From: a virus
IMG/VR virus record: IMGVR_UViG_3300028840_002336
Coordinates: 6,145-70,144 of that record
Direction: 5' to 3' (one strand)
DNA: 64,000 nucleotides
The stretch's first letter is position 1, and every line of letters starts with the position of its first letter. The notes below the pieces were generated by a model. It saw only the letters and a program-made list of their open reading frames with translations. It did not search any database and was not told the origin of the DNA. The translations under genes and the position numbers were made by a program. Positions 27,485-53,118 of the stretch are shown piece by piece.

Positions 27485-27691
27485 CTACTTCCTGAGCACG
27501 AACCGCTCCGCCAGACGGGGCTCTCCGGCACCCAAGGTCACCGGCAGGTAGAAGCGGCTCTTGCACCACTTGCAGCGCGCCTCGCAGCGGCCGTCGTCGT
27601 GGAACACCAGGGGCCCGTCAATGCGGAGCTTGGTGTCGTTTCCAGACTTCTGCATGAGCTTGTTGCGGCACCTGGGGCAGCGGACGCTCAC
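27485..27691 (-). CDS. Small zinc-ribbon protein
   Basis: GTG overlaps the MuF gene stop (GTGA); CPRC...CKWC. Confidence 0.6.
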   Translation of the reverse strand: MSVRCPRCRNKLMQKSGNDTKLRIDGPLVFHDDGRCEARCKWCKSRFYLPVTLGAGEPRLAERFVLRK

Positions 27692-29424
27692 GTCAGACCT
27701 CCGTTGCCGTCGAGGTAGATGACCTCTGCCAGCTCGTCGTCGGGATCGACGTTGCGCGCCTTCGGCTTCGGCCGCATCAGGTTCTTGCGCCCCACGCGGT
27801 CGATGCGCTCGCGGTTCTCTTCCGCCCACCCGCTGCCGACCAGGCCGCTAGGCTCGAGGGGGATGACGTAGCGGAGCTGGCGCGGCGCTGGCCGCCCCAT
27901 GTCCCACGCCTGCGGGTCTTGCTTTCCAGCCTTTGTCTCCGGCCAGGTCATCCGGTCACGCAGCTCTTCCGGGTCGACCACGTCGATCGGCGGCGCCGGC
28001 CGCGGGGCCTTCCCCTCGTAGTTGGCCGCGGTGCCGTAGCTCTTCGGCCAGGCGCCGGCAACCCAGTCCCGCGCGGCCGCTTCCGCCGGGTGCACCCCGG
28101 CCTTCATCATCTCGCCGCGGTCGGCCTTCGTGATCCCCACCCAGCGCTTGAAGGCGTCGATGTCCATCGCCTGGATGCCGCCGTAGCGGCGCAGGTCGGT
28201 CATGTGCGCCAGGTAGGCGTCGACGGCGTGGCTCTCGTGGATGAAGCCCAGGAAGCACTTGTCCTCGTCGAAGCTCCCCGTGTCCGGGTCGAGCTGGTGG
28301 ATGATGTAGACCTGGCGCGCGCCTGGGTCCGGGCCCAGATAGACGTCGATCTCGTCCTCGTCGGCGCCGGTGGTCGAGCGCACGTAGCCGTAGGGCAGCA
28401 GCATGTAGGTCTCGCCCGGGGTGCCGTCGGGGTCGGTCCACTTGCGCACGGTGCCCGGCCGGTTCTCGATCAGCACCGGGATGCCCTGGTACCAGACGAG
28501 GTCGCTCGTCTCGTAGGCCTTCACGAGGTCGAACTCGTCGGCGATGGCACGCGCCATCTCTTCGTGGCTCTGGTAGCGCACGCCCAGCTCGCCGCCCGGC
28601 ACGAGGTCGCCGTCCTCGTCGAAGCCCCATCCGTCAGGCACACGCACGAGCTGGCACTGGCAGTGCGGATGCACCGTGCCGACGACGGCTTTCCAGTCCT
28701 TCGCCTTCTTCCCGAAGTTGCTGCCGTTGGCCTCGAGCCAGGAGAGGCGGAAGATGCGCGGGATGCCGCCCACGGTGTGGAGCCTGATGCAGTGCTCGCA
28801 CGCGTTGGGCATCGGGATCTTGGCGACCCACGGGTCGTCGAAGCGCGCGCGGAAGTTGTCGGCGACGCCGTTCTGCATCGCCTGTTGCTTCTCGGTGACG
28901 GCAATGCGGTCGAAGTCGCGCTGCCAGTCGCCGGTCGCCCAGCCGAGACTGCTGCGGATAGTGCGCGCCGACTTGCGCTTCTCGACGGCCTCGCTGACGG
29001 TCGCCTCGATACGCTCCCGCATCTGCTGACGCAGCCGCGACTCTTCCGCGACGATGAACTGGTCGGCTTGCTGCACGACGCGCTCGCCCAGGCCGACGAT
29101 GAACTGGCCGGCGTGGTGAGAGGCCCAGTCAGAGGCGCGGCGCTCGACGTCAGTGAGCGCGATGGGGGCGTTGGGCAGCTGCGACTTGAACTGCTCGTAG
29201 GTCATCTTGTCGAGCGCGCCCGACTCGAGCTGCCCGACGAGCTGCCCGAAAAGGTAGGCGTCATTGACCGCGGCCATCTCCGGGTCGAGCAGTCCTCGCG
29301 CCTCCAGCTCGTCGAGCGTCTCCTGGGGCAAAGTCGCCATGCCGACGTAGTTGGCCACGAAGGCATTGTGGTGCCGACGGATGATCTCGCGGATCTCGTG
29401 CAGCTGCTCGTCGGTCAGGAGCAT
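27688..29424 (-). CDS. MuF-like head morphogenesis protein fused to an inorganic pyrophosphatase-like domain
   Basis: RIAVTE...ACEHC...VHPHCQC (MuF-type); IENRPGTVR...YGYVRSTTGADEDEIDVYLGP...FDEDKCFLGF (pyrophosphatase-like). Confidence 0.8.
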   Translation of the reverse strand: MLLTDEQLHEIREIIRRHHNAFVANYVGMATLPQETLDELEARGLLDPEMAAVNDAYLFGQLVGQLESGALDKMTYEQFKSQLPNAPIALTDVERRASDWASHHAGQFIVGLGERVVQQADQFIVAEESRLRQQMRERIEATVSEAVEKRKSARTIRSSLGWATGDWQRDFDRIAVTEKQQAMQNGVADNFRARFDDPWVAKIPMPNACEHCIRLHTVGGIPRIFRLSWLEANGSNFGKKAKDWKAVVGTVHPHCQCQLVRVPDGWGFDEDGDLVPGGELGVRYQSHEEMARAIADEFDLVKAYETSDLVWYQGIPVLIENRPGTVRKWTDPDGTPGETYMLLPYGYVRSTTGADEDEIDVYLGPDPGARQVYIIHQLDPDTGSFDEDKCFLGFIHESHAVDAYLAHMTDLRRYGGIQAMDIDAFKRWVGITKADRGEMMKAGVHPAEAAARDWVAGAWPKSYGTAANYEGKAPRPAPPIDVVDPEELRDRMTWPETKAGKQDPQAWDMGRPAPRQLRYVIPLEPSGLVGSGWAEENRERIDRVGRKNLMRPKPKARNVDPDDELAEVIYLDGNGGLT

Positions 29425-32400
29425 CAGGCCGCGCCTTCTTTGGCCGACTCGGGCTCAGCTTCCGGCGCCGCCCAGTGCGTATCGTCCTGCGCGCCCTCGG
29501 CATCCATCGCCGCCAGGCCGGAGATCACCGGCACCGCGTCGTAGTGCACCGGCGCGGCCGGGCCGTGCTTCCCGAACGACTGCAACACGCCCGCGGAGAC
29601 GATCTGCGCCACGTCGTGGTGGTCCTGGCCGTCGTGGTCGTAGTCGTCGCCCCCGTCGATGGGTGGCGGCTTCGGCGGCGCCTGGGGCGGCTGCTTCTTC
29701 GCCTGGGCCTTCGACAGGATGTCGGCGAAGTCGACGAGGGAGATGCCACCGGTCATCGCCTTCGCGAAGGCTTCGATGCCGGTCACCTTCGCGATGGTCT
29801 GCCAGAGCACCCCGTGGTCGGTGTCGCTACCGCCCTCTGCGTCCCACATACGCCACTGGGCCATGCCCAGGCGCAGCTCTTCGGGATCGTCCTGCTTGTA
29901 GCTCGCGCTGCGCCCCAGGGCGCCCTCAAACTCGCGGTAGAGGTCGCCGTCGGCCGCGATCTTGCTCGCGAGCTTCGTGGCCGCGTCGCCCTTCGCGCCG
30001 GTGAGATGCTGGAGCACCCGCGCGTCGATGCACCCGACGTTGCTGTAGCCGAGCAACTCGAGGCAGAAGCTGATCTTGGCGTTGGCCAGGCCACCGCCCC
30101 CGTGCTCCTTGAAGCCCGGATGCTCGCGCAGCCAGTCGCGCAGCTCGGGGCCGTGGTCGGGGAACTTCTTGATGCCCTCTTCGATGATCGCGCGCGAGGC
30201 CTTCGTCTTCCGGAACTCTTCGGTGCGCGCGTTCTGCACGCCCAGGGGGCGCATGATCTGCGTCAGCTCTTCGAGCTTGCGCTCGCCCTCCGGCCTGGTG
30301 AGCCACTGCTCGACCTGGGGCCAGACGCGCTCCTGCACCTTCGCGGAGGTCCGCTTCGACGTGATGGCGAAGAGGGCGATGGCGTCGATCACCGAGCCCG
30401 GCAGGTTTCCAGACTTACGCATCTCCGCCAGGCGCTGCATGTGCTTGCTCGCGCGCTGCACACCTTCCTTCTCGTAGCGCGCCGGGTCGTTCTGGGTGGT
30501 GTCGACCCATTGGCCATCCCAGCCCGGGTCTTCCTTCCACCCGTAGCGCTTCCACCAGTCCTTGCCGCCAGCCATGCGCTTGCCGCTGCTCTTCTTCGAG
30601 TGCACCGCGTGCTCGAAGCCGTGCTCCTTGGCGACCTTCTTCGAGACCTTCTCGCCGTGGTAGATCGCGTGCAGCGTCGAGCGCGCGTGCAGCTTCTCCG
30701 GCTTCTCCTTGAGGTCACGCGCGGGCTTGTCCTCGGAGCCGGACCACTTCTGCTTGAACTCGTCGCCGGACATCTCGTGTGCACCGCGCTGGTGCTCGCC
30801 AGGCGTGTGCGTACGCGTCCACGTGTTGTTCTGCTCGTTGTGGTAGAGCCGCGCCTTGCGCTGCTCGTTGACTGGCAGCCGGTGGCGCATCTTGCCCGCG
30901 TTGGGGTCGTACGGAATGGTGTGCTCGGGGTCCGCCCACTTCCCGCCCTTGGGACCGATGTACGGGCCGCCGCCGGTCATCGCCTTGATGAAGGCCTCGC
31001 CGTCTTCCTCGGAGATCTCTCCGCTGGCGACGAGCGACTTGAACATCTCGAAGAGGTCGAGGTGTTCGCCCTTCTCTTCCTTTGCCTTCACCGGCGTGCG
31101 CTTGAGCTGTTTGCGCTGACGCTTGCGGGGTTCCTTCTCCGCGGGCTCAGCCGGCGGCCCAGCTTCGACGCGGGCCATGAAGTCCGTCGACGACTCACCT
31201 TCACGGCGACCGCCGTACTGCGCTTCGATGACGTCAGTCACCGGCCGGATGCTGCTGGTGTACGACAGCTCCCAGTAGGAGTCGTCGGCCGTCTTCCTGG
31301 GCCGCAGCGTCACGCCGCCCGCCCTGGAGTCGTGGTTGAAGGTGTCCTCGCGGATCGTCACCGCGTCGTTTCCAGCCTTTCGCTGGTCGCGGAACCACCC
31401 GCGCAGGAAGGTCGCCTCCTTCGGCGAGATCTTCACCCCGGACCAGCCACCGCCCTCGACGGGCTCTTCCCGCTCCTTGCGGTGCAGCTGCTTCACGCGC
31501 TTGGCCAGCTCGTCTGGCACCTCGTCGAGGTAGGTGGCCGCGATCTCGTTCGTCTTGTGGAAGAAGGGGCGCACCGTCTCCTTGCGCCGGCGCAGGTCGT
31601 CGTGCGCGAGCACCTTGCGCGACAGCTCGCCCAGGCCCGTGGATGCGTGGCGCGCCATAGCGCGCGCCTCGGGGTCGCGATCCTTCTCGCTCGCCATCTC
31701 GTCTTCGAGGTTCGACAGGTCGGTGAGCAGCCGCGCGATGCGCCCGGCCGTCGCCTTGTCCCCGGGCAGGGTGAACTTTCCAGACTTCTGGTCGAAGTGC
31801 CGGTGAAGCTCCTGATAGGCCGCGCGCTCTTCATCGTCGAGGCCGTGCCCCTCGGGATCGGTCGCGAACTCCGCCACCCGGGACTCGAAGGTAGTCACCG
31901 CCCACTGGGGCACCTTGACCGTGGGGCCAGTCGGCTTCTCCGTTGTCACTTCTGGCGCGTTGGTCGTGCCTGGGGGCTCGTAGGCGAAGGCCTGGCCACC
32001 GCGGTCACCGGCTGCGTAGGACCGGTCGAGCCGGCCCTGCTTGTAGAGCTTCTCCAGCGTCGAGCGAATGGCGTCGCTCAACTCCCGGTCGTCGAGCATC
32101 TTCGCGTGCTCGGGGAGCGCGGCCTGCTTGTAGTAGTCCTTGAGCCACGCCACGGTCAACGAGGGCTCCTTGGACATCCCGGTCCCACTCCGCCACCGCT
32201 CGTACGCGTCGGTGATGAAGCGCGGCAGCTCGCCGGCAAACCACTCGCGCGTCTGCGCGCGGCGATCCGCCTGGCGCTGCCCGACGTCAGGGGGCTTGGC
32301 CTCGGGCTCGTGCACCTCTGTCGAGACCGCCTTGCCCTCGTCGGTGACCGTCGCCTGGATCGCCTGCACCAAAGCCGCGTTAGGCTTCTCACCGCGCAGC

Positions 32401-35399
32401 TCGGCCAGAACGCTCTCAACGGAGACGTCGGTGTTGAGCCACCGGTTCTCTTCCTCTGTGAGGACACGCCCCTCGTTCTGCTTCTTGGTCAGCTCGATCT
32501 TGTACTTGAGCAGCGACGAGATGGCGGTGTCGAAGTCATTGCCCTCCGCCGTCACCCAGTAGACGTTGACGGGCTTGTCCTGGCCGGGCCGGTGGGCACG
32601 CGCCTCTGCCTGGCGGAACTCCATGGCCGTCCAGGGCAGGTCATTGAAGACCACCTTGTCGACGGACGTGAGCGTAGCTCCCTCCTGCAACGTATCCATC
32701 GTCCCGACGAGCACGCGGGCCTTCTCGTTCTCGTCGCGCGTCGACGGCTTGAACTTCCGCTTGATGCGCTCGCGGGCCTCGTCGCCAGTCTCGCCGAAGT
32801 GCAGTTCGGCCAGGCCGTCCTCGCGCTCGTTGAATCGCTTGGTCAGCTCTCGCGCGGCCCCCTTGCTGTTCGTGAAGACCAGCACGTTGCTGTCGCTGCT
32901 GTCGAGGATCTCGTTGACGAAGTCCGCCGTCATCGGCGCCTTGGCCTGCGCCAGCGCGGTCTTGATTCTGCTGTAGTCGCCGATGCCGTATTGCAGCATC
33001 CCCTCGAGCAGGCCGGCGGCGCTCTCACTGCCCTCCGACGCCTTCATCTGCAACTCTTGGATACGCTCCCGCAGCGCCTCGACTGCCTCATCTGCGATGA
33101 CGTCGGCTTCCTCCGGGGTCTTCCCCTTCTCGATCGCGGACGCGCGCGTGAACCACCTCTCGTTGTTCACGAGCTTCTCGTGGTCGGTCGGGAGGTCAGG
33201 CGCCCCGGGCGCCTTGTGCGGCAGCAACTGCAAGGTCTTCGGCGGCAGGTCTTTGAGGACGATGTCCTTCTGCCTGGCCAGGTAGAAGTCGCGCATCTCC
33301 GACCAGAGCTGACCGGTGGTGCGGTCCTTGATGACGTTGCGTTGGTAGTCGCCCCACTCGCCGCGCACGGTGCGATAACCGTACTTGCCCGGCCGCACCA
33401 TCTCAATCTGCGTGATCAGGTCGTCGCGCTTGTTCTTGACGGCCGTGCCCGACAACAGGATCTTGTGCGGCGTCGACTCGCCGAGCTGTTGGATCGCCTT
33501 GGTGCGCTTCGCCCCAGGATTCTTCATCCGATGCGACTCGTCCATCACCATCACCTCGAAGCCGGCAGCTGCGAGGTAGGGAGTGAACTTCGCGACGGAC
33601 TCGTAGTTGATCGTCGCCAGGTTGGCGTCGGCGAGTCCCAGGCGCTCCGCGATGATCTGCTCGTCGCTCTTCTCGAAGAAGCTGGCGAGCGGGTCGTACG
33701 GCTTGCCCGCCTCTTTGTCGGCCGCCTCCTGAGCCTTCTTCTCCTTGGCGAGCTTGCGCTTCTCCTTGAGCAGCGCCTTGCTGTTCAACTCCTTGCCGAC
33801 GAAGTGGGTGGGGAAGAATTGGTCCGCCTCTTCCACCCAGGTGCGCCGCACCGTCTTCGGGCAAATCACGACGGTCTTCTTCCCGGTGACGGCGGCGTAG
33901 GCCAAGACCTGGAACGTCTTGCCCAGTCCCATCTCGTCGCCGAGCATCGCGTTGCCGTCCTTGTCGAGCAAGAACCGGATGCCTTCATTCTGATACGGGA
34001 AAGCCTTGAACTCCGGGTTGAGCTTCGCAGCGACTTCGGGGATCGGCTGGCGGAGCTGTGCCTGCCTCGCATCTTCCTTCGCTCGCGCCTCGTCGAAGCC
34101 CTCGGTGACGATGGTCATCTCGGGGTCGACTTCCTTGATGTACCGGAGAGCCGCCTCCGCGGTGTCGATGTCGAAGACGTGCACGCCCCAGGGTTGCGTC
34201 GTCGAGTCCCACCACGTCAGGGCCGTGAGGTAGCCGGCCTTGTTCGAGAAGATCTTGGAGAGCTTACCCTTCGGGAAACGGAACTCGATCGTGCCCTTGT
34301 CGGGGTTGACCTTCGCGCCGACCGCCTTCTTGTAGGTGCCGTCGGCCAGGCCGCGCCAGACCGCGTCGACAGGGCTCTCCGACTTGACGGCCGCCTCGAG
34401 CGCGGCCTTCTCTTCTGCCGCGCGCTCCTTGGGGGTCTTACCCCTGGGGGGAGTGTCGGGGAAGATGGCGTCGGGGATGATTTCGACGAGGCCCTTCTTG
34501 TAGGCGTCGAAGTCGAAATCGTCCCACTCCTTCAACACGTAGACGCCGCGAGCTGGGAACATGCCCAGGCCCTTGTGGTAGGCGTGCACCTCTTCCCAAA
34601 CCGCACGGTCCTTGATGTAAGCGTCGACCTTGACGTTGAGGCTGCCGAACGTCGGGTGAATGCCCCACACGACGGGCATCGGGTCTTGCGGCGCGTTGCC
34701 GTACTTCGGGTCGTGCGCGGAGATGCCGGCCGCGTAGTAGTCGTGGGGGTTCTGCTCGAGGATCTGTCGACGGTACTTGTAGAGCAGCTTGCGCATCTTG
34801 TGCAGACTGCCCCGCACGCTCTCCCATCGCTCCATGTCGTGCGACGAGAAGCCGGTGGCGTCGCGCTCCCGACTGTTCAAGCGTTGCAGCTCGTACAGGC
34901 CGTCGCCGATGGTCTGGCAGACGAGCGTAGCCTTCTCGTCGCCGTACCGCTCCCCCTTGTCGTGCTCCTTCGCGTGCTCGACCTTGTGCCTCACCTCCGC
35001 CTTTACCTTGCCGTGCTTGGCCGGGTCCCAGTGGATGGTGTGCTTCGGGTCCGCCCAGAGACCACCGCGGGGGCCGATGTACGGCCCGCCCTTCGGGGGC
35101 GCCTTCTTCTTTCCAGCCTTTTCCAAGCTCTTCTCACCGTCCTCGTCGACAGCCTGGCCCAGCACCTCTGCGATCTCCGCGTTCATCGACTTGAGCTGGT
35201 CCCCGTAGGCCTCGCGCAGCCGGCCGTGCAAGTCGCGCAGCACCTGCCAGTGCAGGTCGACGGAGGCCTCGCGCAGGCTCTTTTCCAGGCTTTTCGCGAG
35301 GGCCGGGTTGAAGGGCCTGACCTGTTCGGCCAGGCTCTTCACCATCTCCGTGCCCTTATCCCGCAGCTCCGCGGGTTCGGCCTCAAGGCGCAGTTTCAT
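29424..35399 (-). CDS. Giant polyvalent protein: SNF2-family helicase plus HhH DNA-glycosylase-like domain, with two copies of the leader motif
   Basis: FPYQNEG, GDEMGLGKT, VMDESH, LLSGT and QAEARAHRPGQ (SNF2); GGLANAKISFCLELLGYSNVGCIDARV (Ogg-like HhH with K and D). Confidence 0.85.
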   Translation of the reverse strand: MKLRLEAEPAELRDKGTEMVKSLAEQVRPFNPALAKSLEKSLREASVDLHWQVLRDLHGRLREAYGDQLKSMNAEIAEVLGQAVDEDGEKSLEKAGKKKAPPKGGPYIGPRGGLWADPKHTIHWDPAKHGKVKAEVRHKVEHAKEHDKGERYGDEKATLVCQTIGDGLYELQRLNSRERDATGFSSHDMERWESVRGSLHKMRKLLYKYRRQILEQNPHDYYAAGISAHDPKYGNAPQDPMPVVWGIHPTFGSLNVKVDAYIKDRAVWEEVHAYHKGLGMFPARGVYVLKEWDDFDFDAYKKGLVEIIPDAIFPDTPPRGKTPKERAAEEKAALEAAVKSESPVDAVWRGLADGTYKKAVGAKVNPDKGTIEFRFPKGKLSKIFSNKAGYLTALTWWDSTTQPWGVHVFDIDTAEAALRYIKEVDPEMTIVTEGFDEARAKEDARQAQLRQPIPEVAAKLNPEFKAFPYQNEGIRFLLDKDGNAMLGDEMGLGKTFQVLAYAAVTGKKTVVICPKTVRRTWVEEADQFFPTHFVGKELNSKALLKEKRKLAKEKKAQEAADKEAGKPYDPLASFFEKSDEQIIAERLGLADANLATINYESVAKFTPYLAAAGFEVMVMDESHRMKNPGAKRTKAIQQLGESTPHKILLSGTAVKNKRDDLITQIEMVRPGKYGYRTVRGEWGDYQRNVIKDRTTGQLWSEMRDFYLARQKDIVLKDLPPKTLQLLPHKAPGAPDLPTDHEKLVNNERWFTRASAIEKGKTPEEADVIADEAVEALRERIQELQMKASEGSESAAGLLEGMLQYGIGDYSRIKTALAQAKAPMTADFVNEILDSSDSNVLVFTNSKGAARELTKRFNEREDGLAELHFGETGDEARERIKRKFKPSTRDENEKARVLVGTMDTLQEGATLTSVDKVVFNDLPWTAMEFRQAEARAHRPGQDKPVNVYWVTAEGNDFDTAISSLLKYKIELTKKQNEGRVLTEEENRWLNTDVSVESVLAELRGEKPNAALVQAIQATVTDEGKAVSTEVHEPEAKPPDVGQRQADRRAQTREWFAGELPRFITDAYERWRSGTGMSKEPSLTVAWLKDYYKQAALPEHAKMLDDRELSDAIRSTLEKLYKQGRLDRSYAAGDRGGQAFAYEPPGTTNAPEVTTEKPTGPTVKVPQWAVTTFESRVAEFATDPEGHGLDDEERAAYQELHRHFDQKSGKFTLPGDKATAGRIARLLTDLSNLEDEMASEKDRDPEARAMARHASTGLGELSRKVLAHDDLRRRKETVRPFFHKTNEIAATYLDEVPDELAKRVKQLHRKEREEPVEGGGWSGVKISPKEATFLRGWFRDQRKAGNDAVTIREDTFNHDSRAGGVTLRPRKTADDSYWELSYTSSIRPVTDVIEAQYGGRREGESSTDFMARVEAGPPAEPAEKEPRKRQRKQLKRTPVKAKEEKGEHLDLFEMFKSLVASGEISEEDGEAFIKAMTGGGPYIGPKGGKWADPEHTIPYDPNAGKMRHRLPVNEQRKARLYHNEQNNTWTRTHTPGEHQRGAHEMSGDEFKQKWSGSEDKPARDLKEKPEKLHARSTLHAIYHGEKVSKKVAKEHGFEHAVHSKKSSGKRMAGGKDWWKRYGWKEDPGWDGQWVDTTQNDPARYEKEGVQRASKHMQRLAEMRKSGNLPGSVIDAIALFAITSKRTSAKVQERVWPQVEQWLTRPEGERKLEELTQIMRPLGVQNARTEEFRKTKASRAIIEEGIKKFPDHGPELRDWLREHPGFKEHGGGGLANAKISFCLELLGYSNVGCIDARVLQHLTGAKGDAATKLASKIAADGDLYREFEGALGRSASYKQDDPEELRLGMAQWRMWDAEGGSDTDHGVLWQTIAKVTGIEAFAKAMTGGISLVDFADILSKAQAKKQPPQAPPKPPPIDGGDDYDHDGQDHHDVAQIVSAGVLQSFGKHGPAAPVHYDAVPVISGLAAMDAEGAQDDTHWAAPEAEPESAKEGAA

Positions 35400-35410
35400 C
35401 GCGGGCCCCT

Positions 35411-35794: not shown

Positions 35795-35803
35795 GGTGTC
35801 TCC

Positions 35804-37528: not shown

Positions 37529-37540
37529 GGCCGTCTCCTG

Positions 37541-40486: not shown

Positions 40487-40540
40487 GTCGCTCTCCCGGT
40501 TTCCAGCCAGTCTATACTCGGCTGGCGCTGAGGCCCAGAC

Positions 40541-45268: not shown

Positions 45269-48200
45269 TGCTCTCTCCTCTCGAGGATGTAGAACCCCTT
45301 AGCCAGCCTCTCGGCCACACGCTTCGGTGGCGGCGGGGCTGCGTGCTCTTCAAAGATCAGGCCGTGCTCGCGCGCGTACGCGGCCGCGGCCAGGCTTGCG
45401 TTGTAGGCCAGCGGGTAGGGCAGGAACTCGACGTGCTGGCTGTCCTTGTCGTCGTCTAGGTGCAGGCAGGCACCCTGGCCCTTCCACTCCCAGGCCACCG
45501 TCGTCGGCAGCATCCCCCGGCCGCGCAGCCGCGCATCGGCCGCCTGGAGAATGAGCCTGACGATGGCGATCTTAGGGTCCGCGCCCTGTAGCTCCGCCTT
45601 CACGAGGTCGTCGTCGAGGTGGCCCAGGTCGAGCGCCTTCTTCACCCACTCGGCGGTGTCAGACAGCTCGTAGCCCGCCTCCCGCCGCTGCTTGATCTCG
45701 TCAGCGACGTCGGCCAACTTCATGTTGGTACTGAAATCGGCACCGACCTTCTCTTCCAACTCGAGGTAGGTCTCGAAGAGATTGGGGTTATACTTCGCCG
45801 CGACCATGGTGTCCTCGCGGGAGGCGAAGACGCAGAAGACGCAGCTCAGCCGGCGCATCCCCAGGTCGTACGCCTTGTGGTGCGCGACCCCGGACTCTTC
45901 GATCTTCTTCCAGACCTTCTCTTCCCGCCAGCGGTGGATGGGGAACCAGTCGTCGACGATCTGGTTGCTGTTCTCGAGGGTGCGGCCGAAGTTTTCCATC
46001 GCAAGGCGCCCGCTCGACTCCTGGGCGCGGATGCCCATGGCGTTGAGCACCTTACCCGCCCGGCCGTGCTTCGCCTTGATGTCCTTGTTGAGCTGCGTGA
46101 TCAGCCGATCAACCTCGACGCGCTTGTGGTCGGAAGTACAGAACCGACTCGTCATATCGGGCCAGGCGATGTTCTTACCCCAGTCGACAGCCCAGTCCCA
46201 GGGGTCGCCCTTGGCCTCGAGCGCGGCGAGCTTCTCGCGCGCATCGTCGACCCGGGCCTTCGCGTTAACTCGCGCCTTGTCGCTCTTCGCCCCCGCACCC
46301 TTCTTCGTCCACGTGTCGATGCTCCCCTGGAGCTTCGCCATCGCCTTCTCGTGCTTCTTGGCAACAGCGTTACGCTTATGCTTCGCGCGGCGCACCAGCT
46401 CGGAGGCGCGCCTCGCACCCTCCCATTTCGACGAGCCCTTGCCCGAGCCGATGATCTTCTCGACGTCACTGGGCTTCATGTCGTGCAGCTGGCGCCAGGT
46501 CTTCACCCCCGCCTCGTGGAGCGCGACGGTGTCGACGTCCTTCTGGGAGAGGTCGCCGTAGCGCTCTTCGATCTGCTCGATCAGGTCATTCTGCTGCCGC
46601 TGCACCACCTCGAAGCGCAGGCCGTAGTGCTCCGCCTGCTTCCGGGCGAGATCCTTCGTCCCCTCCCACTCGACGCGGCCCAGGTCGGCGTGCACCGCGA
46701 TGATCTTCTCGCGTGGAAAGCCCTGACTGTCGGCCACTTCAATAGCACGGGTCATCATGGCCTGGCTGTCCTTGCCGGCCGACGTATTGATGATGATCCA
46801 GTCGTAGCTCTCGAGCTTGGGCGCCCAGTCCTCGTCGCCCTCCTGCTGCCAGGGGGCGCGGCCGGTACCGCTGCCGTAGTCAGGATGGCTCCACTTGTCG
46901 GTCGGCTTCGGCGCCTTCAAGTTGAGCGGCTCGTTGAGCCGCGCGCCGGCCGGGAGCTTCCACTCCGCCGGGTCACCTGGGTCGCGCTTCTGAGCCGCGA
47001 GTAGCCCGTCGCTCTTCGGCTTCATCTTCTGCGCGTCGGTGAGGGCAGGGTCCTTCTCGACGATGGTGTCGAAGAGGCCCAGGGCGGGCTCGGGCGCCGG
47101 CCGCTCTGGCTTCTTCCGCAGCTGCTTGCGGTGACGCTTCCGCCCGTGCACCTCTTCGCGGTAGGGGATCGTGTGGGCAGCGTCTGCCCAACGGCCGCCC
47201 TTGGGCCCGATGTATAGCGCCTTCGAGATCTCGAGCTTGCCACCAGACGCGACCCACTCCTTGATGCCCTCGCGCTTGCGCCCCGTCGTCGTGAACCGGC
47301 CGCCGTGTAGCTTGAGCCCACCCTTCGCCGTCGGGCGCAGCTCGCCGATGGTGGCGAAGTGCCACTCGGCGTCGAGTAGCTCGCTCACCCAGGGGCTGTC
47401 GTAGTTGGGCGCGCCGTCCTCGTCGGTCGCCTGGAGCCAACGGTCGGGGTTGGAGATGAACTGCTTGGCGCCGGCCTCGTCAATGAACCCGAGCTTCTGC
47501 ATCTCGGCAGCCATGCCCTCGCGCCGCGGCTTCGAGATCCAGTCGTTCACCTGGCCGATGTGGTCGGTGTAGTCCATGTCGAAGACCACGTCGTAGACGT
47601 CGTCTTCGGCCTGCGCGCGGGCGCGGTCCTGGGCAGCGGTGAGGGAGCGCGGCGCGTTGTCCTTGCCGTCGCGGCCCACCACCGACGTGATGAAGACGGA
47701 GTCGGCCGTCATCTGGATGTCGCGCCCCTCGAGCACCGCCTGCACCTTGGGGTAGACGTCACCCTTCGGCCCCAGCCCCAGGAGATGGATGCGCTTCACC
47801 TGCGGGCGCGCGTCGAGAAACTCGGCGAGCTGCTCCGGGGTGGCGGCATTCTTCATCATGGGGATCGCGCGGATGTAGTCGCCGCCGACGATCTTCTCGA
47901 CCTCTGCGTCGAAGTCGGCCATCGACTGCGGCCCGAGCTGCACGGCGCACATGATGTTCGCGCCCAGCTCGCGGATGGCCTTCACCTCGTGCTGGTAGCG
48001 GTGCAGCCGCTCGAGCGTCACCGCCTGGTTCCCGACTTGGTCGGGCATCACCGGGTAGAGCTGGTCGCCCAGGGCCTGGGCCAGGTCGTGGTAGAGGTCC
48101 AGGCGCTTCGCCCACTCGTCGTCGGAGATGGGGCTCGTGACCTTCGGCGGCCCGTCCTTCTGTACGGTGACCTCGGAAAAAGCGCCACTATCGACGAAGA

Positions 48201-50994
48201 CCTTGTTGCCGTGCCCCGCCAGCTGCTTGAGCGTGTAGACCTCGACCGGGGACAGCTCCGGCGCGGTGACGCCGACATTCCAGCCAATCTCGGCGAAGCC
48301 CTGGATCTCACCCAGGTGGTTGGAGCCCGACGGGAAGTAGCCGCCGAGGTCGATGTCCGCGGCCTTCGCGTCACGACGAAGCTCGTCGAGGTCGAGCTGC
48401 GAGTTGTCCGTCACCGGCTTCTTCCTCAGTTGCTTGCGGTGCCGCTTGCGGCCGTGCTTCTCTTCGTCGTAGGGGATGGTGTGCTGGGGGTCGCCCCAGC
48501 GTCCGCCCCGGGGGCCGATGTAGAGGGCCTTCGTGATGTCGTCGCTCTTCGGGTCGAAGGTACCGACGTTGCCGATGGCGCTCTTGATCTGGCCGGGCTC
48601 GAAGGCGACGACCTCCATGAAGTCGGGGTCCTCGTCGTCGCCGTGGTACACGATGCCGTCGTAGCCCTGGTCGCGCAGCTCCGCGTAGCTCTCCGGCGTG
48701 ATGGTGACGACTTCCTTGTAGCGGTCGCCCTTCGGGTCGTGGATGACGTACGGGTGCTTGATGCTGAGGTAGGCGGGGATGACATTGCCGCCTTTCTTCT
48801 CCCCCTTCGCCTGGGCGTATGACGACGCGTAGTCCGGGTCGACGGAGAAGTGAGCCCCTCGTGCCTGGCGGCCGAACTTGTCCTCGCGCGCGCCCGTGTC
48901 GAACGAGGCAAAGTCTTTCACCGTGCCGTGGTAGACCTTGAGCGGCTTGCCTTCCTTGTCGACGATCTTCGAGCCCTTGAACCAGGCGCCGAACGCCTCT
49001 GACTTCGTCGGGTGCGCCGCCTCTTCCTTCCAAGGAATCGTGTGAGTCGCGTCCTGCCACTTCCCGCCGCGCGGGCCGATGTAGAGGGCCTTCGAGAGCT
49101 TCTCTCCGCCGACCTCTTTGATCTGCTCCGGCGACACGCCGTCGACCACGTACTGGGTCCGGCCTGACTTGAGGTCCACGTCGTCGGGGTCGTAGCTCAG
49201 CGTGTCGCCGTCGACGAGGACACGGATGATTACCGGGGAGCCGCCGTGCTTGGTCGCGGCGTGGTCGGCGTACCACTGCGCAGAGCCCGGCCCGCTGTGC
49301 TCCGACGTCAGGAAGACGTGGTCGGGCGAGGCGGCCGTCATCGCGGTGGCGCCCACGTTGGACTGCTTCCCGTGCTCGCGCGCGGGTTGCAGCCCCTTCG
49401 ACCTGATGTCGCTAAGCAAGCTCGACGTCGTACCGTGGTACAGCCAGACCTTCTTGCCGCGCAGCTCCGAGAGCTTCTTCCCAGAGGGATCGACTCCCTG
49501 GGCCTCGTACTTCGCCTCAGCGGCCTCCGCGTCGGCAGCCTTCTGCCTGGTCGCGTCGGCGGTCTCGGTGTGCTTGTCCTGCCACTCGCGGAACTCACGC
49601 ACCGTCTCTTCGTGCTCTGGGTGCTTCGGGTCGGCGAGCGCTGGCCGGGCTTCTTCCATCGCAGCGCGCCACTTCTTCGGGTCCTTGCGCGCCATCATGT
49701 TGGAGAAGTAGCCGTGCATGTGCTTCGGGTGCTTCTTCTCCCAGGCGAGCGCAGCGTCGAGGGCGTGGGCGGGGTGCTCGGCTTCGGCGAATGCCTGGCG
49801 GTGCTGGTCCGCAGTCTCGGCCTCTTTCCACGGAATGGTGTGGGCAGCGTCCTGCCACTTCCCTCCGCGGGGACCGATGAAGGGGCCACCGCCCTTCTTC
49901 AACTCGCCCTTCGGCTCGCGGTACATGCCCTCGCTGATCTCGTAGTCTTTCTTCCTGCCTTTGTTCTCAACGTAGCCGTGGCGCTTGTAGAACTTCTTGA
50001 GTCTCGGCACCGATCCGCCGTAGTCACCGCTGGGGGTCAGCGTCATCGTCTTGCCGTGCGCGTCGGCGAAGCGGTGTAGTGCATCCATCACCGCTGAGCC
50101 CGTGCCGCCGGAGCGCTTGTCCTTCGGCACGACGACGCGCGAGAGGTTCACCTTGTCACCGTGGTGGAAGACGTCGAGCTTCACGCCGTGGTGCTCTTCG
50201 AGGTGCTTCCCCAGGGCGCGCAGGTGCTCGCGGCTTCCGGGCTCGACGTCGTGGGCGGTCCACGGAATGGTGTGCGCGGGGTCCGCCCATTTACCCCCGC
50301 GCGGTCCTATAAAAGGGCCACTGCCCTTCACCAAAATTGTGGGAGCGTCAGCGTCCAAAAGCCCCGCCTCGTCGACGGGGATGACGAACACCTCGCCGCG
50401 AGCCTTCCGCAGTGCTGCCGCCTGGTGCACGTTCGGGAAGTCGACGCCGGCCCGCGCCAGCGTCATCCCCCGCTGCACGGAAGTCGGGACTTCCGTGCAT
50501 TCCAGACTCTTCTTCAACGGGCTGTACCAGCGCAGCGGGTGCCCTTGGCTCACCAGCTTGCCATTGCCCTTCATACGCTCGAGCGTCGCGAAGACGTCCC
50601 GCGCGCGCTGCTTCGGGGCGCAGCCGTTGAAGTCGGCATGGCAGTCCCCGCGCGCGGCCAGGGCCTCGGTGAGGGCCGGCACCGTGAGCTGCGGCTCCGC
50701 AGCCCCGTTGTCCCTCTCCCGGCGCTTCTGCCAGAGACCGTAGTGCGCCGACACCTCATGCTCGAGGGAGCGCTCGAGCCAGGCCTGGTAGTCCGGGCTC
50801 CGCACCGCAGGGGACCCGCCAGGGATGACGAACTTGATGGGGCCCTCCGCCTCGGTGGCGGGGGGTCCCCCGGCGTTTCCAGACTTTACCGGGGAGGCCC
50901 CCTTCACCGCTGCCGGCTGCCGAGGACGCTTTCCAGACAATCCCGGCGTCGCCGGCTGACCGGCGCCCGCCCCCTTGCGGAGGATGTGCTTCAC
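45265..50994 (-). CDS. Giant polyvalent protein (1909 aa): GNAT, two ADP-ribosyltransferase-like, TGT/DpdA-like and PAPS-reductase-like domains, each behind a leader motif
   Basis: VPKDKRSGGTGS..FYKRHGY; LYHGT..GL.P..VFLT; WFKGSKIVD..GKPL.VYHGT..QIKSAIGN.GTFD; VFVDSGAFS..IHLLGL; SAGKDS..GIRAQES..RLSCVFC. Confidence 0.85.
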   Translation of the reverse strand: MKHILRKGAGAGQPATPGLSGKRPRQPAAVKGASPVKSGNAGGPPATEAEGPIKFVIPGGSPAVRSPDYQAWLERSLEHEVSAHYGLWQKRRERDNGAAEPQLTVPALTEALAARGDCHADFNGCAPKQRARDVFATLERMKGNGKLVSQGHPLRWYSPLKKSLECTEVPTSVQRGMTLARAGVDFPNVHQAAALRKARGEVFVIPVDEAGLLDADAPTILVKGSGPFIGPRGGKWADPAHTIPWTAHDVEPGSREHLRALGKHLEEHHGVKLDVFHHGDKVNLSRVVVPKDKRSGGTGSAVMDALHRFADAHGKTMTLTPSGDYGGSVPRLKKFYKRHGYVENKGRKKDYEISEGMYREPKGELKKGGGPFIGPRGGKWQDAAHTIPWKEAETADQHRQAFAEAEHPAHALDAALAWEKKHPKHMHGYFSNMMARKDPKKWRAAMEEARPALADPKHPEHEETVREFREWQDKHTETADATRQKAADAEAAEAKYEAQGVDPSGKKLSELRGKKVWLYHGTTSSLLSDIRSKGLQPAREHGKQSNVGATAMTAASPDHVFLTSEHSGPGSAQWYADHAATKHGGSPVIIRVLVDGDTLSYDPDDVDLKSGRTQYVVDGVSPEQIKEVGGEKLSKALYIGPRGGKWQDATHTIPWKEEAAHPTKSEAFGAWFKGSKIVDKEGKPLKVYHGTVKDFASFDTGAREDKFGRQARGAHFSVDPDYASSYAQAKGEKKGGNVIPAYLSIKHPYVIHDPKGDRYKEVVTITPESYAELRDQGYDGIVYHGDDEDPDFMEVVAFEPGQIKSAIGNVGTFDPKSDDITKALYIGPRGGRWGDPQHTIPYDEEKHGRKRHRKQLRKKPVTDNSQLDLDELRRDAKAADIDLGGYFPSGSNHLGEIQGFAEIGWNVGVTAPELSPVEVYTLKQLAGHGNKVFVDSGAFSEVTVQKDGPPKVTSPISDDEWAKRLDLYHDLAQALGDQLYPVMPDQVGNQAVTLERLHRYQHEVKAIRELGANIMCAVQLGPQSMADFDAEVEKIVGGDYIRAIPMMKNAATPEQLAEFLDARPQVKRIHLLGLGPKGDVYPKVQAVLEGRDIQMTADSVFITSVVGRDGKDNAPRSLTAAQDRARAQAEDDVYDVVFDMDYTDHIGQVNDWISKPRREGMAAEMQKLGFIDEAGAKQFISNPDRWLQATDEDGAPNYDSPWVSELLDAEWHFATIGELRPTAKGGLKLHGGRFTTTGRKREGIKEWVASGGKLEISKALYIGPKGGRWADAAHTIPYREEVHGRKRHRKQLRKKPERPAPEPALGLFDTIVEKDPALTDAQKMKPKSDGLLAAQKRDPGDPAEWKLPAGARLNEPLNLKAPKPTDKWSHPDYGSGTGRAPWQQEGDEDWAPKLESYDWIIINTSAGKDSQAMMTRAIEVADSQGFPREKIIAVHADLGRVEWEGTKDLARKQAEHYGLRFEVVQRQQNDLIEQIEERYGDLSQKDVDTVALHEAGVKTWRQLHDMKPSDVEKIIGSGKGSSKWEGARRASELVRRAKHKRNAVAKKHEKAMAKLQGSIDTWTKKGAGAKSDKARVNAKARVDDAREKLAALEAKGDPWDWAVDWGKNIAWPDMTSRFCTSDHKRVEVDRLITQLNKDIKAKHGRAGKVLNAMGIRAQESSGRLAMENFGRTLENSNQIVDDWFPIHRWREEKVWKKIEESGVAHHKAYDLGMRRLSCVFCVFASREDTMVAAKYNPNLFETYLELEEKVGADFSTNMKLADVADEIKQRREAGYELSDTAEWVKKALDLGHLDDDLVKAELQGADPKIAIVRLILQAADARLRGRGMLPTTVAWEWKGQGACLHLDDDKDSQHVEFLPYPLAYNASLAAAAYAREHGLIFEEHAAPPPPKRVAERLAKGFYILERREQ

Positions 50995-51006
50995 GGGGTG
51001 CCCCCT

Positions 51007-51507
51007 CTACAGCTCGACGGTCCTGTAGGCCATGAAGACCTCGACCTCGTTGTCGTCGGCGAGGTTGCCGACGATCTCCCCGGCGCCGATGTTGTGCAGC
51101 ACGAGGGCCTGGTTCTCCGCACCGGTCGCCGCGACGATGGCGTCGGCCGCGGCCGGGATGCTGGTGTAGGTGTCCGCGGCCTGGTCGATGAAGTCGGTGG
51201 CCTCGATGTCGCCGGAGACCTGCACACCACTGCCGTCGGTGTACTTGATGCCCAGGTTGGAGCCACCGCCGTCCTCTGCGAAGACGTTGTTCCCGCCGTA
51301 GATGAGCCGCGCGTGCCCGCCCACGAAGAGGTGGACCTTCCCCGCACCGGGCGCCGCGAGCAGCACCGCGGGGGACGCGGCCAGGGCCTTCACCTGCGCC
51401 GCCGTGAGCTTCGTGCGGACCACGCCGAGGAAGCCCTCGACCGCGTTGTACTTCGCCAGCCCCGCGACCTTGTCGCCCAGGGTCTCTCTCACCGTCTGCT
51501 CGCCCAT
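51007..51507 (-). CDS. Putative structural (jelly-roll-like) protein
   Basis: AAGGGAG RBS; GC3-rich codons; Ala/Gly/Val-rich. Confidence 0.65.
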   Translation of the reverse strand: MGEQTVRETLGDKVAGLAKYNAVEGFLGVVRTKLTAAQVKALAASPAVLLAAPGAGKVHLFVGGHARLIYGGNNVFAEDGGGSNLGIKYTDGSGVQVSGDIEATDFIDQAADTYTSIPAAADAIVAATGAENQALVLHNIGAGEIVGNLADDNEVEVFMAYRTVEL

Positions 51508-52056
51508 GTCAGTCTCCCTTGCTGTTGTGTTGCCAAAGTCTGGAAAGCCAGGGCGCTGCCCTCACGGCCGCCCCCGGGTCCCCGGACGGATGGTCATCGC
51601 GGATGGGACCCGCTCGGCGCACACAGCGCACCGGGGAGCCCCCTGGCGGCACCCTGGGGCAGGTCCGTGCGTCAGTCCCCGCCTCCAGCGCCGCTTGGAG
51701 CCCCGCCCAGGCCCCGGACGCGTCATGCGGAGGAACCAGCTCTGCCTGCGCCCAGGGGCCGGACGGGACAGGGTTGTGGGCCCAGGGTGCCCCTTCTATG
51801 GGACCCGCTGGCGCACGGAGAATCACCGGGAGGGCCCCGGGGGGAGCCCACTGCGGACCAGTCCGGCTGGGGGTGGTGAACCCAGGGTCACGGTGGCGAG
51901 GTGGTCCCCACGCCGACCCGGCCAGATGGGACCCATCCCCGGGCTCGTCACCGGGCTCCCCTCCCCCCTCCCGGGGTCGCTCGAGCGGGCCCAGCACGAT
52001 GGCCCACGCATCGCTCTCGCTCAGCTGCGATGCGTGTCTGCTTGTGTTCTCCGTCG
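51508..52056. other. Non-coding, very GC-rich region with short direct repeats
   Basis: No convincing ORF; ATGGGACCCGCT(C)GGCGCAC at ~51603 and ~51798, ATGGGACCC at ~51926; many G/C runs. Confidence 0.55.
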
Positions 52057-53118
52057 TCACTCTTCGTCGTCCTCTGTCTTGCGCCGCTTGCGCTTCCCCT
52101 TCGGTGGTGTGCGTAGGCGTCCGCGCGCGTAGCACGCGCTCCCCTTCTCTAGCAGGGAAGCCGCTTCCTTGGCGACTCGATCTGCCCCCCATTGGTCTGC
52201 TAGGTCTCTGAGGTCGCTTGCCGCTGGTGAGCTGGGGAGGCGAGCTAGCAGCGCCTTGCGCAGCTCCGTCGTCGAGGTCCGTTTCCTGCCTTTCGGTGGG
52301 CGAGCGCGTAGAACCCCGGACGGGCCCTGTGCACGGCGTAGCTCGTCGGGACTGAGCACCCTTGCCCTCGAGAACCCGTCGACAGCCGGCCGTCCGCGCT
52401 CCGTTTCCAGACTTTGCCGACGCCACCGCAGGGCGCGCGCGACCAGCGCGCGCCGCAGCTCGGCACCCCCCAACGGCGTCATTGTCGGGTCGCCGCCGGA
52501 GACGCTGTTGCCGCCGTCGGTTCCAGCCTCTGCGCCACGCTTTCCAGCCTTTACTCTACGCGCTCGATTTCCAGACATTCCGCCCGGAGACATCGCCGCG
52601 GTGATGTCGAGTATCGCCGCACGCGCCTCCGCGTCGCTGAGCCTCTGTCCCTTCCACTGCTCGAGCTTTGCTCTCCACTGCTCGCGGTCTCTGCTGTTGA
52701 ACCCTAACCCTCTCAGCACATCGTTGACTGTCCCTAGGTGGCGCTTGCTCTCGACGTCACGTGCTTCGTTCTCTGCGGTGTTCGGCTTGGGCTTGCGGTT
52801 GGTCATCTTGTCGAGGTTGCGCTGTGCCCTTCGCAGTGCTGTTCGCTCTGCTTGCATGTCCGGTATCTGTCCTGGGGTTCTGTAGCTCCACGCTCCTTGT
52901 GGGATGACGAGGGCTTTGACCAGCGGGTCGAGTCCGCTGTCGCGTTGTTCCAGACACTCACTCGGTGTGAGCGCTTCGTTTCCAGACTTATTGACGGTCA
53001 TCCGCTTGTAGATTCCGACGACGTAGGGCCAGTCGTTCTCGTGCCCCTCTTCGGCTGCTCGCTTCTTCGCTTTCGTCCAGTAGCGTTCGAGTCCTGGCTT
53101 GACGATGTTCGCCGGCAT
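52057..53118 (-). CDS. Basic protein with K-(A/S/G) sites; likely first gene of the head-cargo operon
   Basis: MPANIVKPGLERYWTKAKKRAAEEGHENDWPYVVGIYKRM; VNKS, LVKA, LRKA and LEKG sites; atypical codon usage. Confidence 0.6.
   Translation of the reverse strand: MPANIVKPGLERYWTKAKKRAAEEGHENDWPYVVGIYKRMTVNKSGNEALTPSECLEQRDSGLDPLVKALVIPQGAWSYRTPGQIPDMQAERTALRRAQRNLDKMTNRKPKPNTAENEARDVESKRHLGTVNDVLRGLGFNSRDREQWRAKLEQWKGQRLSDAEARAAILDITAAMSPGGMSGNRARRVKAGKRGAEAGTDGGNSVSGGDPTMTPLGGAELRRALVARALRWRRQSLETERGRPAVDGFSRARVLSPDELRRAQGPSGVLRARPPKGRKRTSTTELRKALLARLPSSPAASDLRDLADQWGADRVAKEAASLLEKGSACYARGRLRTPPKGKRKRRKTEDDEE

Follow-up and report, generated by a model that had tools for sequence, protein, structure and literature searches.

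A repeated lysine-site and hairpin cassette in giant polyvalent proteins of a phage head module: a candidate cut-and-tag signal for putatively packaged cargo

How very long proteins composed of several unrelated domains might be loaded into a phage head and released from it is the question raised by four giant open reading frames (ORFs) among the head genes of IMG/VR virus record IMGVR_UViG_3300028840_002336. We analyzed a stretch of 64,000 nucleotides, positions 6,145 to 70,144 of that record, which is called the window in the following; the record itself comprises 70,144 bases and was judged to be 65% complete, and the G+C content of the window is 66%. The ORFs p1909, p1575, p981 and p1991 carry copies of a cassette of about 25 residues, which consists of a lysine site of the type hydrophobic-x-K-[AGS] and a leader with the motif [YF]IGP[RK]GGxWx[DN]xxHTI[PH][WY]. 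Judged by their predicted domains and their gene neighbours, these ORFs are phage-type polyvalent (multi-effector) proteins inside a head-assembly module. The sequence-only reading of the window had proposed that the prohead protease cuts them inside the head into separate enzymes, each bearing the same new N-terminal tag as a signal for packaging, ejection or DNA tethering. After the analysis described here, we consider it a little better than an even bet that they are packaged polyproteins which the prohead protease cuts into tag-bearing modules.

Nine copies of the motif were found in the window, all within the four giant minus-strand ORFs and distributed as the sequence-only reading had placed them, with five in p1909 (IGP at residues 229, 373, 639, 826 and 1262), one in p1575 (residue 19), one in p981 (residue 395) and two in p1991 (residues 108 and 1481). 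No tenth copy of the leader appeared when all six frames of the window were scanned with the regular expression, and a profile search of the 70,144-base record recovered the same nine copies with 67–78 bits each. Because their individual E-values range from 1e-19 to 3e-23, the nine copies are far beyond chance. A K-(A/S/G) site was indeed present ahead of every leader, in the forms LVKG, LKKG, LSKA, ITKA, ISKA, LDKA, FAKS, LEKA and FIKA. The gap between this site and the Y or F of the motif amounts to 2–5 residues in seven copies, to 7 residues after FIKA and to 13 residues after LEKA, where a PPKG lies nearer.

The polyvalent protein p1909 (45265..50994, minus strand) contains five of the cassettes, and Pfam recognized ART-PolyVal (E 4.5e-25), PAPS_reduct (7.2e-11) and a weak GNAT in it. 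Its predicted modules comprise residues 8–223 without assignment, residues 224–367 as GNAT-like by the weak Pfam match, residues 368–635 as weakly PARP-like with a very weak Pfam match, residues 636–822 with the strong ART-PolyVal match, residues 823–1258 as a 436-residue module without assignment or Pfam match, and residues 1259–1909 as PAPS-reductase-like. Writing the proposed cut as a slash, cassette 1 (residues 221–245, 50260..50334, minus strand like all that follow) reads LVK/GSGPF-IGPRGGKWADPAHTIPW, cassette 2 (residues 365–389, 49828..49902) LKK/GGGPF-IGPRGGKWQDAAHTIPW, and cassette 3 (residues 633–655, 49030..49098), which is followed by ART-PolyVal, LSK/ALY-IGPRGGKWQDATHTIPW. Cassette 4 (residues 820–842, 48469..48537) reads ITK/ALY-IGPRGGRWGDPQHTIPY and cassette 5 (residues 1256–1278, 47161..47229) ISK/ALY-IGPKGGRWADAAHTIPY; both continue into the basic extension HGRKRHRKQLRKKP (48415-48468 and 47107-47160, respectively). 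A similar basic extension, RKRQRKQLKRTP, was noticed in p1991 near 31095-31130.

The SNF2-helicase polyvalent protein p1991 (29424..35399, minus strand) matched the Pfam families SNF2-rel_dom (5.4e-27) and Helicase_C (2.7e-11), besides which it contains long unassigned stretches, and its two cassettes, each with site and motif, cover residues 92–124 (35028-35126) and 1470–1497 (30909-30992). At least two unrelated effector domains per chain are thus present in p1909 (weak GNAT, ART-PolyVal and PAPS_reduct), and p1991 combines SNF2 with Helicase_C. Thermus phage MN1 provides the best phage match to p1991 (26.6% identity over the helicase core) and was considered as a source of a polyvalent relative, but the protein in question is a 679-residue helicase of a replication module and was discarded.

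The lysine-rich giant p1575 (40541..45268, minus strand) contains one N-terminal cassette at residues 13–35 (45164-45232), starting with LDK/ALY-IGPKGG, and the histidine-rich, site-dense p981 (37541..40486, minus strand) one cassette at residues 387–411 (39254-39328). Neither protein matched a family in Pfam, PHROGs or NCBIfam, and a search of the ESM Atlas with p1575 gave no usable match. Unrelated cargo following each leader, as claimed by the sequence-only reading, was confirmed by Pfam, but the cargo could not be called an enzyme in some modules; because p1575 and p981 match no family, the notion of an interchangeable enzyme is established for part of the cargo only. Some 15 residues past its hairpin, p1575 contains the HExxH-like string HEMEH. 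In p981, we found two copies of a second leader, K/GAGEGSRGG-[VI]IGHT-SGKPIY, at 40397-40474 (residues 5–30) and 39665-39742 (residues 249–274). Because the skeleton RGGK...HT...P-aromatic is common to both, this second leader may be a divergent form of the main one. It also occurs after the same lysine site in the related proteins P0007, P0041 and P0107, with the general form K/G(A)GEGSRGG-x-[VI]IGHT-x-[SG]GKP[IV]Y.

The same order of site, leader and module was found far beyond the window. A 42-residue profile built from the nine copies retrieved 655 proteins at E <= 0.01 among 1,989 candidates, and the copies were counted in the best 120 of these 655, a list that is ranked by summed score, favours multi-copy proteins and has P0001 and P0046 of the window among its members. 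For one listed protein (P0112) the regular expression gave no match, so that it was counted as zero, and 285 copies are contained in the other 119, mostly two to five in each. A K[AGS] lies within 12 residues upstream of 271 of the 285 copies, compared with a background of 0.024 per residue, and in 247 copies it stands 5, 6 or 7 residues ahead of the core Gly-Pro (41, 139 and 67 copies, respectively). As a second set, DNA was fetched independently from IMG/VR and from contigs of metagenome-assembled genomes (MAGs), and 143 non-redundant copies remained after dropping those less than 18 residues from the start or 32 residues from the end of the frame and duplicates of the central 30 residues. 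K[AGS] precedes 134 of these 143 copies, and P3 is hydrophobic in 128 of the 134. The extended consensus reads h-x-K-[AGS]-(G)(G)-P-[YF]-I-G-P-[RK]-G-G-K-W-A-D-[PA]-x-H-T-I-P-W-K-E, and two cassette subtypes, K/AL[YF]IGP...HTIPYDEEKHG and GGLWADPxHTxHWDPxxHG, are common to several phages. A second K[AGS] 15–17 residues further upstream occurs in 60 of 252 copies, about three times the background, and would delimit a short acidic spacer peptide.

The placement of the cassettes within the chains is equally regular. The first copy lies within 25 residues of the N-terminus in 27 of the 119 proteins, while all 285 copies keep more than 25 residues away from the C-terminus, and in just 2 of the 119 proteins does one come within 60; the cassette begins modules and ORFs and never ends them. 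A pre-peptide of 3–17 residues ending in the lysine site precedes 26 of the 27 N-terminal copies, which means that the site is kept even where there is no upstream module to remove. Pre-peptides ending in K[AGS] are also seen in the window, at K15 of p1575 and at K7 of both p981 and p1909. The distance from one copy to the next has a median of 296 residues (interquartile range 213–452, n=166). In Pro/Lys-rich linkers of the related proteins we further noticed a clamp-like pentapeptide, (K/E)Q[LM]x[LM]F[GDS]; strings of the form QL.LF were counted 10 times against 0.7 expected and 0 in a reversed control. Such strings are seen in P0003, P0014, P0027, P0037, P0042, P0071, P0087, P0096, P0099, P0108, P0115 and others, and weak forms follow copies 4 and 5 of p1909. 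Sometimes the string abuts the lysine site (QLSLFK/G), and a cut there would leave it at a C-terminus.

When a 50-residue profile was run against 1.84 billion cluster representatives, 801 matched at E <= 0.001, 575 at <= 1e-10 and 61 at <= 1e-30, the 801 matches being protein clusters at 50% identity. The cassette-bearing proteins are large and contain InPase, Zeta toxin, ddrB-ParB, ART-PolyVal, topoisomerase IB, GGDEF, RelA/SpoT, GNAT, SNF2, DarA_C, LPD1 and S-AdoMet lyase domains. As the sequence-only reading had anticipated for a leader profile, hundreds of unrelated metagenomic proteins show the lysine site upstream, variable domains downstream and a head-gene neighbourhood.

None of the family collections consulted covers the cassette. 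A Pfam scan of eight cassette-bearing proteins gave 23 best-stretch rows, none of which overlaps it; NCBIfam returned no match for p981, p1575 and P0004 and only PAPS-type rows for p1909; PHROGs gave nothing on p981 and p1575; and a profile search of the PDB sequences yielded no match at E <= 10. Among 50,697 records of cultured phages, tblastn with a window copy and with a consensus-like copy found no match at E <= 1. The three-cassette protein P0012 hit 512 phage records by tblastn, the 25 best listed rows of which cover its InPase part only (query residues 647–823). The cassette was not found by tblastn in 72,556 plasmid records, and among prokaryote genomes (one each for 185,579 species) it was present at seven loci, all in MAGs, which were assigned to Acidimicrobiia, Lentisphaeria, Myxococcales and Sedimentisphaerales. 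No relevant paper on the motif strings was found in the literature searched, and the papers found there on polyvalent proteins and prohead proteases do not describe the cassette. The cassette is thus widespread but uncatalogued.

To describe the conserved element itself, a model of cassette 3 of p1909 was calculated with AlphaFold2 from a 144-row alignment, which reached a mean predicted local distance difference test score (pLDDT) of 70 and a score of 88 in the core block. In this model, the strands Y-I and K-W flank a GPRGG turn, and the ADPxHTIPW segment trails behind. The element of about 20 residues is thereby predicted with moderate confidence to be a minimal beta-hairpin. We observed the hairpin on cargo only, since the corresponding lysine sites of capsid, portal, scaffold and protease tail (see below) do not carry it. 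In view of these hairpin-free sites we reject the notion that it forms the primed side of the protease site, and we read it as a cargo-specific tag rather than a part of the protease recognition. Nor is it an integral part of an adjacent domain, a possibility raised in the sequence-only reading as one that would speak against it: because many unrelated families follow the hairpin, and it lies outside the 23 Pfam rows mentioned above, it does not belong to one neighbouring fold. The DNA copies of the nine cassettes are only 58–82% identical, 208 of 498 codon pairs for identical residues (42%) differ synonymously, all four third bases are used in their Gly codons, and cassette-bearing loci range from 33 to 71% G+C. 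Because the DNA copies diverge synonymously and the loci span this range of base composition, selection acts on the peptide. The 30 residues past the hairpin carry an average net charge of +1.9, compared with +0.5 on average.

The sequence-only reading had ascribed the lysine sites to the prohead protease, referring to sites of the same type in the capsid and the scaffold. The major capsid protein p474 (24115..25539, minus strand) is of the SPO1/Herelleviridae type (phrog_752, 4.6e-80), shares 37% identity with the capsids of SPO1-like Bacillus phages over an alignment covering 97% of its length, and matches SPO1 Gp6.1 (E 5.5e-75) among PDB sequences, where its matches are 9vel_C, 5lii_P and 9row_B. 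It contains a single site of the claimed type, DLNK29/A30 (25450-25467), which HMMER aligned on K24/S25 of the phi812 capsid (463-residue chain 5lii_P). The 439-residue deposited chain 9row_B of the same phi812 protein has S25 as its first residue, as expected if the mature protein begins there. Such a start agrees with the loss of about 23 N-terminal residues from capsids of the A511/Twort type; cleavage in HK97 takes place after Lys103. An L-x-K-A at residues ~25–40 was present in all 16 capsid homologue rows (12 distinct sequences).

The portal protein (35804..37528, minus strand; Pfam Phage_portal 2.7e-21) likewise contains a single site, LAK27/A (residues 25–28, 37445-37456), and 37 of 38 non-redundant portal homologues have one in their first 60 residues, 9–43 and usually 21–36 residues from the N-terminus, which suggests that the portal would be trimmed as well. 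In the portal homologues (loci L004-L069) the site follows a conserved helix starting with MG(L/F)xD. The acidic scaffold-like protein p297 (25621..26514, minus strand) contains 10 sites where 1.2 are expected from shuffles (z 8.2), in agreement with the recurrence claimed; because it has no family match, the label scaffold reflects position and composition only. The S78-like prohead serine protease p279 (26522..27361, minus strand) was recognized as a head maturation protease by phrog_1028 (7e-28), while its match to Pfam Peptidase_S78 is below the cut-off (E 0.0024, 18.5 vs. 21 bits). Its residues H69 and S135, invariant in 18 of 18 aligned homologues, correspond to the conserved His and Ser of HK97-type enzymes. 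It contains 6 sites against 1.3 expected (z 4.3), one of them in a C-terminal tail (26684-26788, LDK194/ALAMGP...) that resembles the N-arm of the capsid (25360-25467). From the cut site on, the tail mimics the capsid N-terminus, reading LDK/ALAMGPANPGG...ATESLERD in the window and K/AL-x-x-G...PG...GEGFPLR-x-ESL in relatives, and the same mimicry was seen at loci L020, L039, L044-L050, L060 and L062. Such capsid mimicry may be how the protease co-assembles into the procapsid before cutting itself free.

By comparison, the ORFs from 2812 to 24017 contain 0–3 sites each without enrichment. Among the giant proteins, p981 is enriched (14 sites vs. 4.5 expected, z 4.6), while p1909 (11 vs. 8.3), p1991 (12 vs. 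8.4) and p1575 (3 vs. 7.8) are not. The deficit in p1575 looks as if selection opposed internal cuts. Because the giant proteins are unenriched overall, the argument for the cargo rests on the placement of the sites and not on their number. Pfam detected no peptidase family in the giant ORFs (E <= 0.01), so processing by an internal MPTase would lack its enzyme here. Co-folding the catalytic domain of the protease (residues 1–172) with a 50-residue cassette gave a score of 0.04 against a mark of 0.32 in a run without controls, which counts neither for nor against the assignment. Taken together, the interpretation given in the sequence-only reading is partly supported: the claimed sequence grammar holds, and the assignment of the site gained independent support from the capsid, portal, scaffold and protease; the lysine site is probably a prohead-protease site.

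Head genes accompany the cassette at most of its loci. A window-like portal, MuF, protease or capsid gene was found within 10 kb and on the same strand as the cassette at 65 of 70 viral loci, the others being L012, L014, L018, L051 and L064, some of which lie at contig ends, and window-like head genes were also present at 5 of the 7 MAG loci. Of the 56 loci that have a MuF homologue, 24 show the ORF of this protein extended into a cassette, which in 14 of the 24 follows within 13–28 residues of the end of the MuF alignment. In the window, the MuF-like head protein p578 (27688..29424, minus strand) is fused to an InPase domain (Pfam InPase 5.3e-34, weak VG15; PHROG 'minor head protein'), and the junction between the two parts contains the site LVK302/A and is free of the hairpin.

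From the observed grammar, distribution and gene neighbourhood we infer packaging, cleavage and a tag function, which may be arranged as follows. The polyvalent proteins would enter the procapsid, with the pre-peptides, the hairpins or MuF as candidate routes. The S78-like prohead protease would cut the cargo after the Lys of the hydrophobic-x-K/[A/G/S] sites, the same enzyme and site type serving to trim the capsid and probably also the portal and scaffold proteins as well as the tail of the protease itself. A spacer of 1–4 residues separates each cargo site from the conserved element of about 20 residues, and the cuts would free modules of a median of ~300 residues, small enough for ejection, each of which would keep a hairpin at its new N-terminus. 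The hairpin would most likely serve to retain or organize cargo in the head, by docking to the shell, the core or the packaged DNA, and/or act in co-ejection. By analogy with T4, the peptide preceding the site could be the targeting signal instead of the hairpin. A more far-reaching version, to which we give a tentative minority vote, is a portable 'cut-and-tag' grammar, in which any enzyme placed behind the site and a YIGPRGGKWADPxHTIPW hairpin would enter an SPO1-type capsid, be released by the prohead protease and keep the hairpin, often with a basic tail after it, as a tether to the packaged DNA or the shell, so that a series of individual enzymes would exit together with the genome. Effector genes of tailed phages would thereby yield genuine viral polyproteins.

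Several points weigh against packaging and cleavage as outlined. K[AGS] is absent from 14 of 285 and 9 of 143 copies (5–6%), the giant proteins as a whole are not enriched in sites, and the hairpin model is of moderate quality only. A stated mature N-terminus of Herelleviridae capsids was not found in the literature searched, and the proposed link to maturation in phi812 draws on the length of a deposited chain and on the N-terminal processing of A511/Twort-type capsids. The clade as a whole is known from sequence alone, and the lysine might just belong to a longer motif that is not cut.

This last point leads to the strongest of the alternatives, which we regard as distinctly less probable, at roughly one chance in a handful: the cassette would stay uncleaved, the giant chains would remain intact, and lysine and hairpin would form one repeated binding motif raising avidity for DNA, the capsid interior or a host protein. 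A single motif would fit the nearly fixed distance of the Lys from the hairpin, and the basic 30 residues that follow would suit nucleic-acid binding; moreover, the vRNAP of phage N4 is packaged unprocessed according to the accessible text of PMC5512222, which also counts against the cleavage reading. On the other hand, the spacing from Lys to hairpin varies from 5 to 10 residues with spacers as different as AL, GP, GGP and GGGP, hairpin-free sites of the same type occur at the capsid residue aligned to the phi812 chain start, at the portal N-terminus, in the scaffold and in the protease tail, and the pre-peptide before the Lys is retained in nearly all N-terminal copies (26/27).

We think it rather unlikely that the hairpin acts after injection only, docking the effectors on one conserved host or phage target such as DNA ends, the replisome or sliding clamp, or RNA polymerase, with loading left to the pre-site peptide, MuF or others. 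The peptide is near-invariant at loci whose portal and capsid proteins are only 30–60% identical and whose G+C content differs as widely as stated above, and a universal partner would explain this better than a fast-evolving shell; the excess of clamp-binding-like QLxLF strings in the linkers points in the same direction. Against it stands the restriction of the cassette to the surroundings of one head-module type, as seen at 65 of the 70 viral loci, together with its absence from the plasmid and cultured-phage records searched. Because it is found beside one head-module type only, the cassette appears to be co-dependent with the capsid and protease lineage.

Still less credible, and in our view improbable, is the assumption that the giant proteins stay in the cytoplasm as late products and never enter the head, their site pattern being coincidental or meant for another protease. 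The knowledge of the clade from genes alone leaves room for it, but their genes are embedded, on one strand, among those for terminase, portal, MuF, protease and capsid, MuF-cassette fusions occur at 24 of 56 loci, and the domain set is that of phage-type polyvalent proteins, which the accessible part of PMC5512222 predicts to be packaged. Large DarB-like and helicase proteins are, in addition, present in virions of Thermus phage Lalka27a, as far as the available text of that study goes (bioRxiv 10.64898/2026.04.20.719267). We see hardly any chance for repeats that serve as DNA-level recombination joints for module shuffling with a functionless peptide, a reading in keeping with post-cassette modules that differ between relatives and with the extra basic extension common to copies 4 and 5, but rejected on the codon evidence given above (58–82% identical DNA copies, 42% synonymous differences, and a peptide kept across 33–71% G+C).

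The cassettes lie within a compact late operon. The large terminase subunit (58849..60714, minus strand; Pfam Terminase_6C 6.6e-12) marks the start of the head module, and the order on the minus strand is DNA methylase, TerL, small ORFs, p353, a gap of ~550 bases, p1909, p1575, p981, portal, p127, p1991, MuF/InPase p578, protease p279, scaffold p297 and capsid p474. The ORFs after the capsid gene we take to be tail genes by their position, and one of them gave a sub-threshold tail-tube-initiator match. The gap (51508-52056) between p353 and p1909 contains no convincing ORF in an operon that is otherwise packed; p118 and p305, which were called within it, have low-complexity translations rich in Arg, Pro and Ser, as is typical of off-frame high-G+C sequence. 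The unassigned 353-residue p353 (52057-53118), which precedes the giant ORFs, has 4 hydrophobic-x-K-[AGS] sites where 1.1 are expected (z 2.9) and may likewise be a head protein that undergoes processing.

The longest related contigs cluster at about 100–113 kb, while the genomes of Herelleviridae, which have a homologous capsid protein, are given as 125–170 kb in the accessible part of the ICTV profile. If the shells are of equal size, this shortfall could be room for protein cargo; a T=16 shell of the SPO1 type, filled with a genome of ~100–113 kb, would have such space to spare.

Relative to the literature we found, the near-invariant shared tag coupled to the probable maturation site of the capsid, its repetition inside chains, which makes them read as polyproteins, and its clade-wide distribution are new. 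Polyvalent proteins are thought to be injected arsenals for anti-defence and host takeover, and the cassette, if read rightly, offers a simple and testable answer, valid for a large clade of uncultured phages, to how chains of up to 2,000 residues enter the capsid, pass the tail and reach their different targets. It would also let cargo modules be predicted from sequence alone, as in the 801 clusters, and mark a case in which tailed phages naturally process polyproteins, by a logic that may extend to clades with other protease specificities.

Among known systems, the phage-type polyvalent proteins are the closest. According to the accessible text of PMC5512222, these are giant chains of 2–15 effector domains whose genes neighbour those for portal, MuF and terminase and which are predicted to enter the capsid and to be injected, with a repertoire including ART-PolyVal, InPase, SNF2, GNAT, ddrB-ParB, Zeta toxin, RelA/SpoT and GGDEF. 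Their processing is ascribed there to zincin MPTase domains inside the polyvalent proteins, and that part of the text describes neither a shared inter-module cassette nor a link to the prohead protease (PMC5512222). The proteins of the window belong to the class of Iyer et al. 2017 by their phage head and packaging neighbours and, in the case of p1909 and p1991, by their effector domains. An internal MPTase, which is a frequent but not obligatory feature of the class, was not found in them by the Pfam scan, and they differ from the class by joints that carry a capsid-type Lys site and a hairpin outside the Pfam and NCBIfam models.

The 250-kDa multi-enzyme antirestriction protein of the Dar system of phage P1 is also comparable. 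In DarB, a signal of 30 N-terminal residues is enough to direct the protein to the capsid and can also carry a reporter, and the authors could identify no consensus signal among the Dar proteins (PMC9024508). In contrast, one near-invariant tag is found here on all cargo modules, in hundreds of phages and repeated inside chains. In the giant phage system represented by SPN3US, the prohead protease gp245 cuts at A-x-E, and its substrates are the capsid, the portal, abundant ejection proteins and the enzyme's own C-terminal tail; 13 of the 14 mapped cuts remove N-terminal propeptides, long ones being cut at several sites (PMC10052503). The use of a prohead protease with a simple three-residue motif is common to the SPN3US/phiKZ-type phages and the window, whereas a polyprotein of unrelated enzymes or a tag kept after the cut is missing in SPN3US.

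In virions of Thermus phage Lalka27a, a 1715-residue helicase protein occurs together with a DarB homologue, as described in the accessible text (bioRxiv 10.64898/2026.04.20.719267). With the HK97/S78-type phages and the Herelleviridae, our system has in common a serine protease with conserved His and Ser and a capsid 37% identical to SPO1-like ones; unlike in the window, the cassette was not found in cultured Herelleviridae (tblastn, 50,697 phage records). To our knowledge, no cargo polyproteins have been described from cultured members of that family.

The targeting system of T4 provides a functional parallel. As Mullaney and Black reportedly described in 1996, the internal proteins IPI-III and Alt carry an N-terminal capsid targeting sequence that ends in a prohead-protease site. 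Once the targeting peptide has been cleaved off in the head, the mature protein accompanies the DNA on injection; the T4 protease cuts at L-x-E sites. The pre-peptides of 3–17 residues before the N-terminal cassettes look analogous to it. The T4 proteins, however, are single chains with one N-terminal cut, where the signal stands before the cut and no conserved element is known to be left behind, and their protease is of the gp21 family with Glu at P1 instead of S78-like with Lys at P1. Because protease family and P1 residue differ, the cassette system would work like the T4 system without being a member of it.

A further parallel to the hairpin is found outside the phages. Encapsulin cargo-loading peptides are short conserved peptides on unrelated enzymes which direct them into a shell of the HK97 fold; they usually sit at the C-terminus, are not known to be coupled to proteolysis, and have a sequence unrelated to the hairpin. 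Should the reading proposed here be correct, tailed phages would have in the hairpin their first cargo tag that is defined by sequence and distributed across a clade, a counterpart of these encapsulin peptides and a candidate handle for loading foreign proteins into phage heads.

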